A stretch of 63,976 bases of DNA, filler included, from Sandaracinaceae bacterium (GTDB lineage Bacteria > Myxococcota_A > Polyangia > Polyangiales > JADJQN01), in NCBI GenBank assembly GCA_947483975.1. It is 3 parts of 3 records of this genome, joined end to end, with 100 filler letters (N's around TTAATTAATTAA, not from the genome) between each part and the next. Parts side by side here need not be neighbours in the genome. Positions count along the whole stretch, not along the records: positions 1 to 24,132 come from CANKOL010000037.1; 2 more parts are not named here. The stretch is one strand, 5' to 3'. The position numbers and the translations under genes were made by a program. The notes under the pieces were generated by a model, which ran no database searches, had not been told where the DNA came from, and was given only the letters and a program-made list of their open reading frames with translations. Positions within the stretch are counted from its first letter, which is position 1, and every line of letters starts with the position of its first letter. Shown here piece by piece: positions 12,974 to 32,216 of this stretch.

Positions 12974-13276
12974 TCAGCTTGCGGCGAGCAGCGGCTTCGG
13001 GAGGCGGCCAACGTGCCCAAGGGCCTTGTAGAGATCCACGGCCTTCTGGGCGCTCAGCCAGAACTCCGGCGAGGTGCGGAAGCTCGCGGCGAGCTTGAGC
13101 GCCATCTCGGCGGTTACCGACGTGCGGCCGTTGACGATCCGGTTGACGACCTTCACGTCGCAGCCGAGGTGATCGGCGAGCTGCTTCTGCGTCATCCCGA
13201 GGGGCCCGAGAAACTCCTCGCTCAAGATCTCGCCAGGAGACGTCGGCTTTCGGGTCACGTTGCGGCTGATGCTCAT
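12974..13276 (-). CDS. higA: HigA-family antitoxin
   Basis: PGEILSEEFLGPLGMTQKQLADHLG...IVNGRTSVTAEMALKLAASFRTSPEFWL. Confidence 0.95.
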   Translation of the reverse strand: MSISRNVTRKPTSPGEILSEEFLGPLGMTQKQLADHLGCDVKVVNRIVNGRTSVTAEMALKLAASFRTSPEFWLSAQKAVDLYKALGHVGRLPKPLLAAS

Positions 13277-13289
13277 GGTTCGCTCCTGT

Positions 13290-13583
13290 TCATCGATGGT
13301 AGTCGATCACGTCCACATCCTCGGGCCCGGCGTCCGTCCACCGGAACACGATGCGCCACTGGTCGTTGACGCGGATGCTGTGGAACCCCGAAAGGTCGCC
13401 TTTGAGCGTTTCCAATCGGTTCGCCGGGGGTGAGCGAAGGTCGTCGAGCCTCTGAGCGTAGTGCAGCATATCGAGCTTGCGGGTCACGATCTTGGCCATC
13501 TGCGCCCAACCCTCACGCCGAAGGCGCTTGCCGTCGAAGAAGAAGTCCGCCACTTCGTGGCGGCTGAAGCTCTGGATGGCCAC
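13290..13583 (-). CDS. higB: HigB-family (RelE-like) toxin
   Basis: DLRSPPANRLETLKGDLSGFHSIRVNDQWRIVFRW...VDVIDYH; toxin-first gene order. Confidence 0.95.
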   Translation of the reverse strand: MAIQSFSRHEVADFFFDGKRLRREGWAQMAKIVTRKLDMLHYAQRLDDLRSPPANRLETLKGDLSGFHSIRVNDQWRIVFRWTDAGPEDVDVIDYHR

Positions 13584-13667: not shown

Positions 13668-13963
13668 TCACCACCTCATCCGATACGCGCGGTAGCTCGC
13701 GCTCTCGCCGCCGAACACCGCAGCGAGCGCGCGCGCTTGCCGATGGATGAGCTCGCGCACGCGAGGACGCTTGCCGAGCCACGCGACGTGTCGCCCAAGC
13801 TCACGCCCCCAGGCTCGGGAGAGCGTTCGGCGCGAGGACGTCGAGAGCCAGCCACTGCGGCCGATACGCGGCCTGAAGCCCCTGCTGAAGAGCGAGATCA
13901 CCAGCCGATCGACGACGGGCGCCCGGAATTCCTCGACGACATCGAACACGAGGCTCGCCGAGC
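13668..13963 (-). pseudogene. cas1: CRISPR-associated Cas1, 3' remnant
   Basis: SLVFDVVEEFRAPVVDRLVI...IHRQARALA...YRAYRMRW fits the Cas1 C-terminus; 5' part replaced by IS91 sequence. Confidence 0.8.
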
Positions 13964-14758
13964 CGGCCGCGATCGACAGCGTCTCGAGCACGTCTTCCTT
14001 TCGCTACATGGCGCGCAGGAGCAAAGCGACGAGCACCTTGGGCGCGCCCTCCCCTCGCGCTCGACCGGCTCGCGCTTCGTGACGACGGAAAGGTCGTCTA
14101 CCGCTTCAAGAAGGCCTGGCGCGATGGCACGCACGCCGTCGTGCTCTCGCCTGCGGATTTCATCGCGCGCTTGTGCGCGCTGGTGCCGCCGCCGCGGTTC
14201 CACTTGATGCGCTACCTCGGCGTGCTCGCGGGGCACTCTTCGCTCCGTGCCGAAGTCGTGCCGAAGAAGCGGGCCGCGCTGCCTGAGCCTCCCAAGCAGC
14301 TCCCGCTGTTCGACGAAGATGACGAGCCGACGACGTCCGCGAAGGGCGCCGCAAAGAAGACGGCCGAGCCGTCGCGGCATCCGTGGCCGTATCTCTTGAA
14401 GCGCGTGTTCTCCATGGACGTGCTGAAGTGCGAGAAGTGCGGCGGCCGCCTGCGCCTCGTGGAGATCGCCACGAAGCGCGACGACGTCAGCCGCGTGCTC
14501 AGCGAGCGAGGCTGGTCGAGAGCGCCGCCGAGAGCGCCGCCCCTCGCCGAGCTGCCGGTTCACGGACAGCTTCGGCTCGCGTTCAAGTGAGCTCGACGAG
14601 CTGAGCGGCTGCGCGGAGCACGGCCAGGGAGACGTGCGCCCGGCGCACGAAAACCAGCCCGAAATGAGCGTTCGCGCCACGTCGAGGACCGTCTGGCAGC
14701 GCAGCATGGTCGCCGAGATTGTGCTCGAGAGCGCCCTCGCGTGCCGTTCATTCCTACG
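13964..14758 (+). mobile_element. IS91-family (Y2/HUH) transposase 3' relic plus downstream end region (copy A)
   Basis: DRQRLEHV..RYMARPPLALDRL..DGKVVYRFKKAWRDGTHAVVLSP.DFIARLCALVPPPRFHLMRYLGVLA; frameshifted, 31-bp insert, no 5' half. Confidence 0.9.
14010..14040 (+). repeat. 31-bp imperfect-palindrome insertion (empty copy)
   Basis: GGCGCGCAGGAGCAAAGCGACGAGCACCTTG; removing it restores codons Y-M-A-R-P-P. Confidence 0.85.
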
Positions 14759-15842
14759 GGGCGGCGCTGCTCGCCTGATCGGCGGCTGTTGGGCGCTCCG
14801 CCATGTCCTCCTCGCGGAAGATGCGCAGCGCCTCGATGGCGAGCCGCGTGAGCAGTGGTCCGAGCAGGAGGCCCCAACCACCAAACGCGACGACGCCGCC
14901 GAGCATCGCCAAGAGCACGATGACGCCATGCATCTGCAGCTGGCCCCACTTCGAAAACAGCGGGCGCAAGACGTTGTCGGCGCTCGACACGACGATCGCG
15001 CCGAACGCGAACAAGATGACGGCCTTGGTCGTCTGCCCGTCGAGCGCGAGGCCGATCGACACCGGCACCCACACGAGGGCGGTCCCGACCGACGGGATGA
15101 GCGACGCGAACAACGTCACCACGCCGAGCACCAGCGCGCGCGGCACGCCGAGCGCCAGGTACGCAACCGTCGCCAGCACGCCCTGCGCCAGCCCGGTGAG
15201 CCCGACGCCGATCGCCAGCCCGCGCCCCGTCTCGATGAACGCGCGGGCGAGCCGCTCCTGGTGGCGACGTGCGAGCGGCGTGTGCGCCTCGGCCCAGGCG
15301 TACGCGCGTGGCCCCTCGAGGAGCGCGACGTACGCGGCCGCGAAGAACACGAAGAGGCCGAGCAGCGCGTTCGCCGCGACGCCCGCGACGCCGGTCATCA
15401 GGCTCATGGCGCGCTGCCCGTTTTCTTGGGCGAAGCGCATGACCGAGGGGATGTCGAAGGTCGGGCCGCTCTCGATGCCGATCGGCTGCGCGCCGTCATG
15501 ACTCGGTGAGACGATCGCTTGCAGCGCGCTCTGTCCGGACTCGGACGTGGAGATGCGCCGAGCGAGCTCGATGGCGTCCGCGGTGAGCGCGATGCCGATG
15601 AACACGATGGGCCCGAGCACGAGCACGAACAGCGACAGCGTGAGCAGCGCCGCAGCCCAGCGGCGCCCGCGGAAGCGCTTGGCGAAGCGCTCGAGCAGCG
15701 GCCGCGCGAACGACGCGAACCACACGGCGAGCACGAGATACGGCCACAGCGGCAAGAACACCCAGAGCGTCCCCGCGACGAGCAGACCGACGACGACGCG
15801 GAGCGCGAACCGATGGGAGCCGGGCGTGATTGAGGCGGACAT
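14754..15842 (-). CDS. AI-2E family transporter
   Basis: Multiple TM helices; GLAQGVLA, SLIPSVGTALVWVP, DNVLRP, GGVVAFGGWGLLLGP. Confidence 0.92.
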   Translation of the reverse strand: MSASITPGSHRFALRVVVGLLVAGTLWVFLPLWPYLVLAVWFASFARPLLERFAKRFRGRRWAAALLTLSLFVLVLGPIVFIGIALTADAIELARRISTSESGQSALQAIVSPSHDGAQPIGIESGPTFDIPSVMRFAQENGQRAMSLMTGVAGVAANALLGLFVFFAAAYVALLEGPRAYAWAEAHTPLARRHQERLARAFIETGRGLAIGVGLTGLAQGVLATVAYLALGVPRALVLGVVTLFASLIPSVGTALVWVPVSIGLALDGQTTKAVILFAFGAIVVSSADNVLRPLFSKWGQLQMHGVIVLLAMLGGVVAFGGWGLLLGPLLTRLAIEALRIFREEDMAERPTAADQASSAAP

Positions 15843-16731
15843 GCACGCCGAACAGCATCTTGCATGCCACGCATCGTTTCCGCGCGCGCCATGCGCGCGT
15901 GTATTGCATGGCGAGGCCCGCGAGGCCGAGAGGGCTGCGGCGCCACACACGATGTGAGTCGTTACGACACGCTGAGTGTCATTAGGCATCGCGCGTAAGA
16001 CTTCCGAACGCCCTCCGCGCCGCGTCTCCACGTGGCAGTCCCCGCTCCATGCACCGGTGAACCCTACGCGAGGGTGCTCCGAAGCACAATCTCGGCGTCG
16101 ATGCGGGTCCTCTGGACGGTCTTCGGTGACGCGGGAGTTCTTGCTTTCGGCGGCTTTTCACACGCTGGGCGCACGTCTCCCTGGCCGCGCTCTGCGCAGC
16201 CGCTCCGCTCGTCGAGCTCACTGGAAGGCGAGGCGCAGTTGCCCGTGCGGGGACACCGGCAGCTCGGCGATGGGTGGCGCTCTCGGCGGCGCTCTCGCGT
16301 AGCCGCGCTCGCCGAGCACGCGCGCTACGTCGTCGGGCTTCTTGGCGATCTCGACGATCCGCAGCCGGCCGCCGCACTTCTCGCACTTCAGGACGTCGAC
16401 GGCGAAGACCCGCTGCAGCAACCAACTCCACGGATGCCGCGACGGCTCGGCCGTCTTCGTCGCGGCTGCCTTCGCGGACGTCGTCGACTCGTCCGCCTCG
16501 TCGAACAGCGGGAGCTGCCTCGGCGACTCGGGCTGTGCGGCAGTCTTCTTCGGGACCACCTCGGCACGGAGCGACGAGTGCCCCGCCAGCACACCGAGGT
16601 AGCGCATCAAATGGAACCGCGGAGGCGGCACCAGCGCGCACAACCTGGCGATGAAGTCCTCGGGCGACAGCACGACGGCGTGCGTGCCATCGCGCCACGC
16701 CTTCTTGAACCGGTACACGACCTGCCCCAAG

Positions 16732-18801
16732 ATCGAGTAGCCGCCCCCGTCACCGGGGGCGGCTCTCACAGAACCGTACTTGTGCTGTTCACATACGGCT
16801 CTTCGGGACCGCAGGTTGTGACCCCCGCGGCCGGCCGGTTCACGACCTCGCTTCATCCCAGCACAGCGTGAGCTGCACCGGGGCGACGTGTTGCTCTTGC
16901 AGCCGGCGCCACTGCTTCACGATCGAGACGAGCCCACGTTCCTCCCAGAGGGAGTTCCCGAGTGCTCGATGAACCGTGCTCGCATGGCTGAGCGCCCAGG
17001 TAGACTTTCGACCCCCGTGCACGCTCCACCACGCCGTCTTGCGCTTGCTGCCGAGCGAGATGAGCCTCTTCACGATCGTTCGTTTGCGTTTCCAGTGGCG
17101 GAGCTGAATCGCGCGCAGCCGTCGCCGGATGTGCGCGTCCAGATTGGAGAAGGTTCGTTCCATCGCGGTCGTGCAGATCCCGAAGAAGCCCACCCAGCCG
17201 AGCACGTACGCGTTGAGCCGGAGGATGCACGCACTGAGCGAGCCCCCTTGGTTTCGCGGCGTGTGCTCGCGGATAGCCTCGTCGATTCGCTTCTTCGAGC
17301 GCACCGACAGCATCACCTCGACTCGACCGTCGAGCGGCTCGCGCCGCAGGCGGAAGCCAACGAAGTGACGCTCTTCGGGGCGTGCGACGGCGCTCTTCTG
17401 CTCATTCACCTTGAGGCGCAAACGCCTCTCGATGAACTGCTTGATACTCGCCATCACGCGCTGTCCTGCTCTCTCGCTGCGAACGTAGATATTCGCGTCA
17501 TCCGCGTAGCGAACGAAGCGGTGTCCACGGCGCTCGAGCTCGCTATCGAGCTCATCCAGAACGATGTTACTCAGCAGCGGTGACAGAGGACCGCCTTGCG
17601 GCACTCCTTCCTCTGTCGCCACCACCACGCCATCCGGCAGCACCACCTTGGCCTTGAGCATGCGCCCGATGAGCACGAGCAGGCTCTTGTCTTGCACTCG
17701 CTGAGCGAGCTTGGACATCAGCCGCTGGTGATTCACTCGATCGAAGAACTTCTCCAGGTCGAGATCCACCACCCACTCATACCCCTCGTTCACATACTCG
17801 ACGGCCTCGGCGATCGCCGTATGGCAGCTCCTTCCCGGCCGAAACCCGTGACTCGAACGGTGGAATGTAGGCTCGTACAGCGGTTCGAGCACTTGCCGCA
17901 CAGCTTCCTGCACCACTCGATCGATCACGTTCGGAATCCCCAGCCCTCGCTGACCGCCGCTCGCCTTCGGGATCCACACGCGTCGGATCTCTCCGGGCAT
18001 GTAAGTCCCTCCCGATTGCAGCGCGTTGGCCAGCTTCGGCAGCCACTCGTCGAGATGCTCGCGCATCGCGGCGACCGTCAGACCGTCCGGACCGGGTGCT
18101 CCGCGGTTCCTCTCCACCTTCGAAAATGCCTCCATCAATCGGTCCGTCACTGCATCCATCGTCGCGACCGTCGCTGTCTTGCTCGTGGTCTTCGGCTTCG
18201 GCGTCGCGCGTGTCGCAGAGCGTTCTAGGGAACACTCCGCTTCAGCGTCGATGCGCGCTCTCGCGCGCTCTTCGGCTGTCCCGGAGAACAGAGAAAGCTG
18301 CTTCGGTGCTTCGTCGACCGGGATCGCCTCACCTCCCGAGCGGGGCTCGACCTCGCGCGTTACAGCCGACTTTCGCCGGCCTTGTGGCTTGTCGCGATCC
18401 TCTGACTTCTGGCGGGTCATCGTCCTTCGTTCTTGCGTTCTACGGACTACCGCTTGCGCGGGGCCCGCCAGATCTCCCTGGGTCAGCTGCAACAGATTTC
18501 GTGGCCAACCCGTCGCCACTACGCCCGCGGCTCCGATGCATTTCGGGCTTCGCCGCTGCACGCCGGCTCACCCGCCGCGGACGCCTTACGGCGCTTCACT
18601 TTCGTTCGGGTCGGTCACGCACCTAGGGTTCCATCGGACCCCCCCCTCGCGGGCCCAACAGGGGTCTGCCCTTCGGCTTCTCCACTGCCGGGGACCTGGT
18701 GCTCCAGATCGACGCCCTTTCCTCTTCGGTGTCGGGTTCCCTGCATCAGGGCCCCGGGTTTGGACTCTCACCTTCCTATCTGCTGCGCCTGCCAGGCGCA
18801 C
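16732..18801 (-). ncRNA. Group II intron, probably class C (IIC)
   Basis: 5' GTGCGCC at 18801; domain V-like AAGAGCCGTATGTGAACAGCACAAGTACGGTTCTG; domain VI hairpin ending CTACTCGAT at 16732; compact domain I. Confidence 0.92.
16840..18420 (-). CDS. ltrA: Group II intron reverse transcriptase/maturase without endonuclease domain (start may be 18159)
   Basis: GAPGPDG, RGLGIPNVIDRVVQ, HGFRPGRS, DLDLEKFFDRVNH, PQGGPLSPLLSNI, RYADDANIYVRSERAG. Confidence 0.97.
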   Translation of the reverse strand: MTRQKSEDRDKPQGRRKSAVTREVEPRSGGEAIPVDEAPKQLSLFSGTAEERARARIDAEAECSLERSATRATPKPKTTSKTATVATMDAVTDRLMEAFSKVERNRGAPGPDGLTVAAMREHLDEWLPKLANALQSGGTYMPGEIRRVWIPKASGGQRGLGIPNVIDRVVQEAVRQVLEPLYEPTFHRSSHGFRPGRSCHTAIAEAVEYVNEGYEWVVDLDLEKFFDRVNHQRLMSKLAQRVQDKSLLVLIGRMLKAKVVLPDGVVVATEEGVPQGGPLSPLLSNIVLDELDSELERRGHRFVRYADDANIYVRSERAGQRVMASIKQFIERRLRLKVNEQKSAVARPEERHFVGFRLRREPLDGRVEVMLSVRSKKRIDEAIREHTPRNQGGSLSACILRLNAYVLGWVGFFGICTTAMERTFSNLDAHIRRRLRAIQLRHWKRKRTIVKRLISLGSKRKTAWWSVHGGRKSTWALSHASTVHRALGNSLWEERGLVSIVKQWRRLQEQHVAPVQLTLCWDEARS

Positions 18802-18939
18802 GTGCTCGTCGCTTCGCTCCTGCGCGCCATGGTCACGAAGCGCGAGCCGGTCGAGCGCCAGCGGAGGCCGCGCCATGTAGCGCAACACGTGCTCGAGTCG
18901 CTCCCGATCACGGCCGTCGATCGCGACCTCCGCGTGCAC

Positions 18940-18994
18940 CACGTGCTCGGCGTGCTCGGCTCGCTTCGCTCGCTCTGCGCGCGCTCTCCGCGCG
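18940..18994 (-). repeat. 55-bp imperfect-palindrome insertion with GAGCGAAGCGA core inside IS91 copy B
   Basis: Absent from the homologous IS91 fragment at 29791-29877 (GGV-N-VHAE). Confidence 0.75.
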
Positions 18995-26099: not shown

Positions 26100-26210
26100 G
26101 CTTTCGGCCGTTTCGGGGATTGTCCTAGAAGGCCGGATCGTCGCGGCCCGGCAGCGGCGCCCGTAGTTGCTGCAAGCGACCCCTCGCGCAGGGCCGTCAG
26201 CGCCCGCGCG

Positions 26211-26279
26211 TGGGCTGCTGCGGCTCGCGTTCGGGTGAGGTCGACGAGCTGAGCGGCTGCGCAGAGCGCGGCCTGGGAG
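26211..26279 (+). mobile_element. Short IS91-family relic (copy D: last codons plus 3' flank)
   Basis: LLRLAFG* followed by TCGACGAGCTGAGCGGCTGCGCAGAGCGCGGCC as in copies A, B, C. Confidence 0.75.
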
Positions 26280-29790: not shown

Positions 29791-29877
29791 CGAGCGCGCG
29801 CTCGCAGAGTATGGTGGCGTGAACGTGCACGCGGAGGTCGCGATCGACGGCCGCGATCGGCAGCGACTCGAGCACGT
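29791..29877 (+). mobile_element. IS91-family transposase internal fragment (copy E)
   Basis: ERALAEYGGVNVHAEVAIDGRDRQRLEHV. Confidence 0.8.
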
Positions 29878-30579
29878 TCGTATCCGCTGCACGACGCGGT
29901 ATAGCGGCGCGGCGCTCGGCGAGGCCATCCTACGAGCGTGAGTCCGACCTCTTCAGCGCGGAGTCTACTGCTCGGTCGCGCTGGCCGTGATCGGCGGCGG
30001 GACGGTGAGTGGCAGCGTCTCGCTGTCGAGCTGGGCGGCGTCGAGGCGCGCGCCGTGGGGAGCGTCGAGGACGCGTTGGGCGGCACGCCTGGAGGTGCAC
30101 GGCGTCGCGCTGCGCCGCGACCTCGGGCGACGAAGGCGCGTTGTATTGAGTCCGTGCCCGACCTCCTAGACCGCTCGTGCCCCGGCCATTCCTGGCGCAG
30201 GCTCGTGGTGCCCCAGCCTCGTCGGCGCCGCGCAAAGCTCGTGCGCGTGACTGCGCGCGTGCCGACCGAGCCCGAGCTCGCTGAGCGCGACGGCGAGCCA
30301 TCGCCACAGTGCGCGCCTCGAGACCCCACAGCCGGCGCCAGCGCGCCCGCTGAGCTCAGCGCGCCGAGCGACGAGCACGACGGCCACATCGACGTGCTCT
30401 ACGCCGCCGACACCGCGGCGCCCGACGAGCCAAGAATCTCCCCCCTGTGCTCACCGTTCATCAGGTCCGGCGTGTTTTGCGTCACTTCGGCAAGCCCACC
30501 GACCCGCCACCGCTCGCCAAAGCCCGCGACCCCGCCGACCACTGCGCCGCGTAGCCCGCCGTGGCCGCACACCCCTCGT

Positions 30580-31874: not shown

Positions 31875-32155
31875 GCGCGTAAGACATCCGAACGCCCCCC
31901 GCGTCGCTTCTCCATATTCCAGGCTCAGCTCCATGCACCGATGAAATTTATGCGAGGGTGCCCCGAAGCACAATCTCGGCGTCGATGCGGGTCCTCCGGG
32001 CGGCCCTCTGCGACGGGGAAACCGTCACTTTCGACCGCTCTTCACGCGCAGAACGCACGCCTCCCTCGCCGCGCTCTACGCAGTCGCTCAGCTCGTCGAG
32101 CTCACTTGAAGGCGAGGCGCCGCTGTCCGTGGGCGAGCCGCGGCACCTCGGCGCG
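31875..32155 (-). mobile_element. IS91-family oriIS-like end with last transposase codons (copy C)
   Basis: AHGQRRLAFK* then ~230 nt homologous to 15991-16217, ending GGGCGTTCGGATGTCTTACGCGC. Confidence 0.88.
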
Positions 32156-32216
32156 AAGCAACTCACGCGGAGGAAGCCAACGGAGGGGCTATGCCATCCT
32201 CGCTCATGCCTGACCG

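Follow-up and report, generated by a model that had tools for sequence, protein, structure and literature searches.

A stretch of 63,976 nucleotides (nt) from the Sandaracinaceae bacterium genome assembly GCA_947483975.1, called here the window, carries two copies of a short insert that interrupts transposase genes of the insertion sequence (IS) family IS91. The insert is the core of a conserved 35-nt unit, CAT-GGCGCGCAGRAGCGWAGCGACGAGCAC-YTTG-G, which, judging from the sequences that surround its copies, is confined almost wholly to IS91-family (Y2 HUH) transposase genes of Polyangia-type bacteria, myxobacteria from soil and lakes. Across the window, 22 metagenome loci and one further genome, G368, we identified 30 instances of the unit, in 12 groups of distinct flanks and in both orientations; tblastn recognizes IS91 transposase sequence around 25-26 of the 30. 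The unit has entered at least 10 positions in IS91 genes, always with a net gain of 31 nt and no target duplication, in partial agreement with an earlier suggestion of a miniature mobile hairpin: the insert is a recurrent miniature module that entered these genes independently at many positions. One of the two window copies is in turn occupied by a group II intron.

The unit and its host genes

The 31-mer GGCGCGCAGGAGCRAAGCGACGAGCACCTTG occurs exactly at positions 14010-14040 (plus strand) of the window, and its first 27 nt recur at 18828-18802 (minus strand), where the three mismatches that follow are the first bases of the intron. A shuffle control of this search gave matches in 0 of 100 shuffles. 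A first-pass annotation of the window had placed the 31-mer at two different codons of two IS91 relics; alignment of these relics, A and B, bears this out, with an insert at different codons of two homologous Y2_Tnp genes and a net gain of 31 nt each time. The extent given to the insert held for the 31-mer itself and not for the conserved unit, which is larger (CAT + 31 + G, 35 nt). Copy A (14007..14041, plus strand; CAT + 31-mer + G) is empty, has the variant GCAAAGC and lies at Y-M|A of relic A. Copy B, from sequence reading and alignment, is split by the intron, as had been proposed: its left part (CAT + 27-mer; 18802..18831, minus strand) forms the 5' exon and is followed by GUGCG, while CTTG (16731-16728, minus strand) comes directly after the intron, the right part (CTTG + G; 16727..16731, minus strand) being the start of the 3' exon. 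Sequencing contigs from three runs join 16731 to 18802.

Relic A comprises the C-terminal part of a transposase (13950..14590, plus strand; Pfam Y2_Tnp, 1.5e-13; 85% in tblastn with residues 301-484 of P0001, a full-length relative of 484 amino acids (aa)). It is truncated at its 5' side and has another frame break upstream of the unit. Relic B consists of 169 C-terminal codons (16221-16727) with the 3' non-coding end of the IS (16038..16727 in all, minus strand; Pfam Y2_Tnp; 95% to P0001) and, on the other side of the intron, of a short stretch upstream of the unit (..HAEVAIDGRDRERLEHVLRYMARPPLALDRLALRDH; 18829..18939, minus strand) recognized by blast and tblastn comparison. Its DNA is 87.6% identical to copy c of G368, the match reaching window position 16038. 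Full-length host relatives such as P0001 carry both PF14319 and PF04986 (Zn_Tnp_IS91 and Y2_Tnp), and Pfam finds Y2_Tnp in the window relics, as expected of IS91 Y2 HUH transposases. The window copies and the unit-bearing copies of G368 are relics with further deletions.

A search for the 31-mer across related genomes, proposed in the first-pass annotation, showed that it recurs widely, in the 30 instances and 12 flank contexts given above. A scan with the 22-nt core, using one genome per species, gave 10 loci. The 27-mer was found with up to two mismatches in 7 of 401 genomes of the same class, against 0 for a reversed control, and the 35-mer with up to three mismatches in 5 of 400 genomes at the order level, the IS91-type unit being present in G002 and G368 only. 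The G002 locus (L003) is a 2418-nt contig that corresponds to window copy B including the intron, with 100% identity over the 1988 nt aligned. G368 holds five units, all within IS91 transposase sequence: four are empty and sit exactly at the copy-B codon, with flanks 77-96% alike, and the fifth marks a third site 119 nt downstream. Units are few in each genome (1-5). Scanning metagenomes for the right half of the unit returned 23 loci, 22 of them with the full CAT-27mer-YTTG-G; as this pattern demanded the empty form, it is silent on intron occupancy, and site counts depend on the patterns chosen. The evidence comes largely from metagenome-assembled genomes and short contigs. Mapped sites span residues ~300 to ~430 of P0001, and the reverse-oriented units (L094/L085 and L093) lie at the C-terminal zinc-ribbon region. 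Two planctomycete matches of the first scan (L002 and L010), with unrelated, coding-like flanks, were rejected as chance, and L081 was set aside likewise. A literature search with four unit words of 14-16 nt, on both strands, returned one unrelated paper and no description of the unit; most subscription journals and preprint supplements were outside its scope.

This distribution bears on one account of the two window copies, a purely local accident in which one recombination took place between copies A and B in this genome. Copies A and B are separated by 2.7-4.8 kb, 7-10 nt at the site A junction are identical to the unit, and a unit of the copy-B type may well have served as template for copy A. 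Yet the unit is present in a second genome and 22 metagenome loci, at ten or more other positions, which refutes a local accident as the complete explanation and leaves this account scarcely credible.

In pairs of loci sharing the same site, the identity of the unit is 0.94-1.00 versus 0.71-0.93 for 200 nt of ungapped flank. Since a crude open-frame test is uninformative in G+C-rich DNA, the host genes were assessed by tblastn and frame-by-frame translation. Removing the 31 nt in silico yields long, conserved and uninterrupted transposase frames in L092, L097, L080 and L101, and the unit is often the sole lesion of an otherwise open transposase frame. For annotators, this means that many 'frameshifted' Polyangia IS91 genes differ from intact ones by a single insert. 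Two or three units, spaced 73-119 nt from one another, are present in several genes (L095 and C17 of G368); L095 combines two units with a longer relative, unit 2, described below. G368 also has two intact, unit-free IS91 copies, 94% identical to P0001. These two copies share 99.7% identity over 2654 nt, including an open reading frame (ORF) upstream on the opposite strand (L133, 1511-2330; G368:C6) which we take to resemble OrfA of the IS3 family, and they may have moved or duplicated as a composite.

A gene broken in this way could still be expressed if the unit were a tolerated or regulatory recoding cassette, the transposase being made by +1 frameshifting (for example, on the CUU-G at the unit end) or by translational bypass. 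In line with this, several unit-bearing genes are otherwise open and conserved, insert sizes are all 1 mod 3 (31, 52 and 55), the unit ends in CTT-G at phase-0 sites, and T4 gene 60 has a mobile bypass element (bioRxiv 10.1101/2022.08.31.505936). We nevertheless consider recoding improbable. At least two codon phases and both orientations are represented among the units, matched take-off and landing codons at a distance of 31 nt are missing, no stop follows the putative take-off codon, and genes with two or three units, as well as relics, exist. Nor does any RNA-library contig cover a unit: these contigs, which cannot establish absence, are placed inside the intron and two other stretches, and none lies over either window unit or the exons by the intron. 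A literature search combining IS91 and translational bypassing returned nothing relevant.

Other features of the window were noted around the relics. Further fragments of the same IS91 subfamily lie at 26178-26279, 29794-29898 and 31928-32159 (blastn against the G368 copies). A membrane ORF of 425 aa (14754-16031, minus strand) separates the two relics, and two small adjoining ORFs of 100 and 97 aa (12974-13583, minus strand) resemble a HigA/HigB-type antitoxin-toxin pair.

Junctions, relatives and spread of the unit

Sites of insertion are named by letters, A and B being those of the window copies. Intact relatives read ..LRDDGQVVYRFKKAWRDGTH.. and their proteins ..RDDGQ.. and ..WRDGTH... At sites B and D the uninserted DNA is GAY|GG, and every inserted copy has CAT; at sites A and E, CAT|G is native. 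The native IS91 sequence at site A is CATGGCGCGC, so that the left junction shares 7-10 nt with the left end of the unit. The copy at site C carries GCGCGGCCAT, which equals the left flank of the B-site copy in L091, beside an 8-nt near-match, ATMGCGCG. Site B shows a total change of +33 in L091 and L095, where 12-14 nt of the left flank are scrambled. The unit junction has an ambiguity of only 2 nt (GG), and the arms match at ~8 of 12 positions. Models with a target duplication of 3, 4 or 5 bp were rejected, as they clash with the net gain of 31 nt (the 4- and 5-bp models give +30).

The insert had been described as a palindromic hairpin, and this found no support in folding, its energy being no better than that of shuffled sequence. 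Ten folds of the insert, alone or in five genomic contexts, gave z values of +0.17 to +2.03 relative to shuffles, with the exception of one 56-nt copy-A context at -0.95. What remains is a small GCRAAGC-type structure, namely a five-pair GCGAAGC-type stem-loop with two G.A mismatches; stem-loops of this type are especially stable.

A longer related insert, unit 2 (..CGCGCGGAGAGCGCGCGCAGAGCGAGCGAAGCGAGCCGAGCACGCCGAGCAC-GTG), lies at 18940..18993 of the window (18943-18990; minus strand), precisely where relic B is truncated at its 5' side. It reads CAY-52 nt-GTG, measures 52-55 nt (..GAGCGAAGCGAGCCGAGCACGCCGAGCAC..) and is found in at least four other places in IS91 genes of other loci; the loci with unit 2 are the window, L059, L134, L084, L089, L095, L091 and L087. 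A change of GAC to CAT accompanies it in L091, and in L087 it marks the junction of a deletion. In sequence, unit 2 is similar to that part of a G263 repeat which forms the first hairpin.

This repeat leads outside IS91. The 27-mer forms the second hairpin of two-hairpin repeats of ~110-160 nt, of which there are 7 copies in G001 (L017, L021, L022, L020 and L018) and 10 of a variant in G263 (L061-L072), with a further locus in G288 (L060). These repeats stop sharply at ..TTGGGGCA, and their first hairpin covaries between genomes (GGTCTTCCCC/GGGGAAGACC versus GGCCTCCC/GGGAGGCC). Several are directly adjacent to a tRNA gene, at the 3' end of tRNA-Ser or on the 5' side of tRNA-Asn, or to a tRNA fragment. 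A search of Rfam assigned the native two-hairpin repeats to no family. The 27-mer, as CAC-27mer-CTGG, is also the apical loop of long intergenic inverted repeats (L011, L143, L144 and L146), hairpins that lie just past the stop codons of unrelated genes in four genomes. On sequence comparison, the 27-nt heart of the unit is thus a module that also occurs in small GC-rich hairpin repeats of these bacteria. A repeat variant with a perfect GGCGC-GAA-GCGCC stem was also seen, its copies (L073/L074; G263:C1:115000-145000) lying 3-6 kb apart, just upstream of successive large genes of a Tc-toxin-like array (SpvB, TcdB-middle and RHS domains). The unit may conceivably have arisen in situ, by fold-back copying from upstream of site B, where complementarity is 12/13, although this fold lacks significance and the 27-mer is common beyond IS91.

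The reading that we favour, at or slightly under an even chance, is that the unit spreads by short-homology templated copying, combined with hitch-hiking and gene conversion among IS91 copies. Existing units would serve as templates for new copies at similar-looking sites (S-A-Y|G-G), through copy-choice or patch gene conversion, with a few donor flank bases dragged along; IS91 itself and gene conversion among IS91 paralogues would multiply the units and carry them between genomes. This preference is based on the co-converted flanks, the junction microhomology, the local clustering of units and the presence of relatives at rearrangement junctions.

Several observations weigh against templated copying. 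Microhomology at sites B and D amounts to just 3-4 of 5 bases. The unit has the same outer limits, CAT .. YTTGG, in each of the 12 contexts; if copying relied on microhomology alone, the ends should be more ragged, and constant ends match defined cleavage sites better. A unit variant with GCGTAGC is common to G368 copies whose flanks are 77-82% alike, and the closer window copy B has GCGAAGC; this pattern would fit gene conversion, and it would also fit repeated insertions that all derive from a single master copy. The restriction to IS91 genes would be accounted for only by a founder effect and local hopping, and at four loci (L079, L083, L093 and L098) an IS91 context is not established. Among run contigs, which drop rare variants, none skips the 31-mer at site A, and no donor-to-recipient event was directly observed among the collected copies.

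Constant ends at 12 contexts, together with the lack of target duplication and the occurrence in both orientations, speak for a true miniature non-autonomous element instead, a 'hyperparasite' of IS91. The unit would be a 31-nt single-stranded piece cut and joined in cis by the Y2 HUH transposase during rolling-circle transposition, behaving like a palindrome-associated transposable element (PATE) or a repetitive extragenic palindromic (REP) element at far smaller size. The interrupted gene encodes a transposase of the HUH Y2 type, and the insertion sites are concentrated within ~400 nt of the IS 3' end. The unit also ends in an imperfect stem-loop followed by CTTG, mimicking the end and target signals of IS91: in this family, the target tetranucleotide is CTTG or GTTC, and terIS is an imperfect subterminal palindrome by the cleavage tetranucleotide (bioRxiv 10.1101/2025.01.24.634351). 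Two IS91 copies have left flanks, CACCTTG| and CACTTG|, that resemble the unit end GCACCTTG|. The IS91 copies of G288 lack a duplication, one left flank ending in CTTG and another not, and one G368 copy possibly has CACTTG on its left, its border not being sharp. Finally, units that are often the sole lesion of a gene, and up to three per gene, suggest an insertion rate seemingly well above ordinary decay.

On the other side, insertion by an HUH enzyme should spare the flanks, yet sites B and D, and one site of unit 2 as well, show CAT in place of GAY, and site C has extra donor flank besides. The left flank is NCAT rather than CTTG or GTTC, and the unit is unlike either end of the IS91 copies with definable ends. 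We know of no precedent for a 31-nt element with a single weak hairpin. On balance, an HUH-driven element seems to us unlikely, though it is the main competitor of templated copying. More doubtful still is the broader claim that the unit and its 52-55-nt sibling are the smallest known mobile DNA, an HUH-driven hyperparasite that inserts into single-stranded IS91 DNA, disables the transposase of the element on which it rides and serves as a landing pad for a group II intron of class IIC, in a three-level selfish nest. That the unit is a copy of an IS91 end was rejected: it is unlike the defined right ends (G368 and G288) and the left end of G288, the P0001-type left end being undefined.

The group II intron in copy B

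The IIC-like intron measures 2070 nt (16732..18801, minus strand). As expected of a group II ribozyme, it starts with GUGCG (18801-18797), has domains V/VI at its 3' end (last base 16732) and can be skipped exactly. Rfam models match at 18490-18654 (RF02001, 63.6 bits) and 16732-16803 (RF00029, 41.3 bits versus a gathering score of 40), and an identical copy is present in G002 (L003). The borders are fixed by contigs of three DNA runs from three studies (X8, X9 and X12), in which precisely these 2070 nt are missing between 18802 and 16731; an intron-less copy-B site therefore exists in those communities. Empty copy-B alleles comprise four IS91 copies of G368 and the contigs of three lake or sediment runs.

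The intron encodes a protein with reverse transcriptase and maturase domains (16843..18423, minus strand; Pfam RVT_1, 6.7e-42, and GIIM, 1.8e-15), and a Pfam scan found no endonuclease domain in it. Its best matches among PDB sequences are the GsI-IIC reverse transcriptase (2.3e-119) and a second IIC reverse transcriptase (5.7e-87), with the IIA protein LtrA at 6.6e-40. By sequence match rather than phylogeny, the protein is nearest to IIC reverse transcriptases and the intron IIC-like.

The first-pass annotation had the insert seeding intron sites as a hairpin target. A small stem-loop (GGAGC-GAA-GCGAC) does stand six bases before the splice site, an IIC-like arrangement; a significant hairpin is not supported, the fold being no better than shuffles. 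According to an earlier study, IIC introns recognize the intron-binding site 1 (IBS1) and a stem-loop, with splice sites 3-11 nt after the stem-loop (PMC1702495). The intron would have reverse-spliced into one copy-B unit because in this unit GAGCAC, as IBS1, comes six bases after a GCGAAGC-type stem-loop. For the matching exon-binding site 1 (EBS1), GTGC at 18619-18622 had been put forward and is not borne out by comparison: AGGTGC is kept in four of five aligned relatives whatever their exon, L038 having AGATGT. A better candidate is GUGC at 18558..18561 (minus strand), which would pair with GCAC of the exon. The aligned bases are GTGC where the exon is ..GCAC (L027) and CGAC where it is ..GTCG (L029), a covariation holding in two of three informative relatives; with only 3-4 sequences behind it, this candidate is tentative.

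In a comparison with nine related introns, whose 5' parts are 70-88% identical, the 27-mer was upstream of none (0/9). One of them, L027, shares just GAGCAC of the exon, and most sit directly 3' of other small hairpins with GNRA or GAA loops. All nine sit in other targets, an outcome envisaged in the earlier annotation. Twenty-seven of the 28 distinct unit copies have no intron, the metagenome part of them having been drawn with the empty-form pattern; in the genome scan, which has no such bias, the intron-occupied unit was seen only in L003, the twin of window copy B.

These observations bear on the suggestion that the intron travels with its own target, moving with exon flanks of 27 and 4 nt and leaving the 31-mer as a scar on precise loss. 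The 31-mer is indeed the sequence around the intron (27 nt upstream and 4 nt downstream), and the very same site also occurs without the intron. The absence of the 27-mer from all nine relatives, and the empty copy-B sites in G368 and the three runs, speak against it. So do the five units of G368, where the query matches nothing of the intron beyond its 27-nt exon part, the restriction of the intron to L003 in the unbiased scan, the existence of reverse-oriented units and of a longer variant, and the presence of the 27-mer in non-IS91 hairpin repeats that have no intron. A scar is highly improbable. Empty B sites, relatives without the 27-mer and relatives in other targets indicate that the intron is a later, independent colonist, which neither carries nor creates the unit.

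Two side observations concern the intron. Contigs of two runs join its 5' end (18800) to 18951, after ..GCGAAGCGAGCCGAGCAC of unit 2; the shorter side of this weak join is 22 nt, a hint that the intron is perhaps also able to use the sibling unit. Four 151-nt contigs of the metatranscriptome library X19 fall within the intron and its ORF (16804-18304, minus strand), which does not in itself prove transcription.

Comparison with known systems

What the unit stands for depends on how it spreads. If the spread is enzyme-driven, the size limit known for mobile elements is lowered, and a 31-nt passenger parasitizes a transposon family with a retroelement on top. If it occurs by templated copying, the unit is a clear case, found in nature, of a rolling-circle transposase being disabled again and again by a quasi-palindromic patch, and a useful marker for IS91 dynamics. 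Either way, the mini-hairpin with GAGCAC provides a concrete short natural target for testing site choice by IIC introns.

The intron resembles group IIC introns (B.h.I1 type and the IIC-attC lineage) in its reverse transcriptase-maturase protein without endonuclease domain, in the candidate small stem-loop 6 nt 5' of the intron and in having relatives 3' of small hairpins, an arrangement that matches the recognition of IBS1 plus a stem-loop described earlier (PMC1702495). It differs in that the stem-loop is a 5-bp GCGAAGC-type mini-hairpin within a 35-nt insert interrupting a transposase gene, instead of a terminator or attC site, and in that a single occupied unit is seen.

REP elements and bacterial interspersed mosaic elements (BIMEs), with their REP-associated tyrosine transposases (RAYTs), and the IS200/IS605-derived PATEs consist of short imperfect palindromes rich in GC; they are dispersed, cause no target duplication and are associated with HUH-type enzymes. 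The unit is similarly a short GC-rich imperfect palindrome lacking a target duplication, and its 27-mer caps intergenic hairpins after genes. Unlike them, it lies inside the coding sequence of one gene family, at 1-5 copies per genome, and its flanks are altered on insertion; the GAY-to-CAT flanks and the insignificant hairpin do not fit an HUH-mobilized hairpin element of the PATE or REP kind. No RAYT turned up, in an analysis that made no search aimed at them.

Miniature inverted-repeat transposable elements (MITEs) and Rickettsia palindromic elements (RPEs) are 100-150 bp long and have inverted terminal repeats and/or target duplications, the RPEs being in frame. What they share with the unit is that they are small, non-coding and inserted at many sites in protein-coding genes. 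The unit, however, adds 31 nt net, shifts the frame, is without duplication and keeps to one host gene family, and it lacks the terminal inverted repeats with target duplication that define a MITE.

Mitochondrial byps are short mobile frame-breaking inserts inside coding regions. The unit shares with translational-bypass inserts, of which the T4 gene 60 mobile element is an example, a short length (27-55 nt) and a frame-breaking position in coding regions (bioRxiv 10.1101/2022.08.31.505936). It differs from them in having no matched take-off and landing codons, with no identical codons 31 nt apart in register, no stop after the take-off codon, and insertion in several phases and both orientations.

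Quasi-palindrome or template-switch mutagenesis and microhomology-templated insertion, which produce clustered base changes and an insertion beside an imperfect palindrome, with donor flank co-copied, are usually one-off events. Junction microhomology and the co-copying of donor flank liken the unit to such events; what sets it apart is that the same 35-nt product, with fixed ends, occurs at 12 contexts across genomes.

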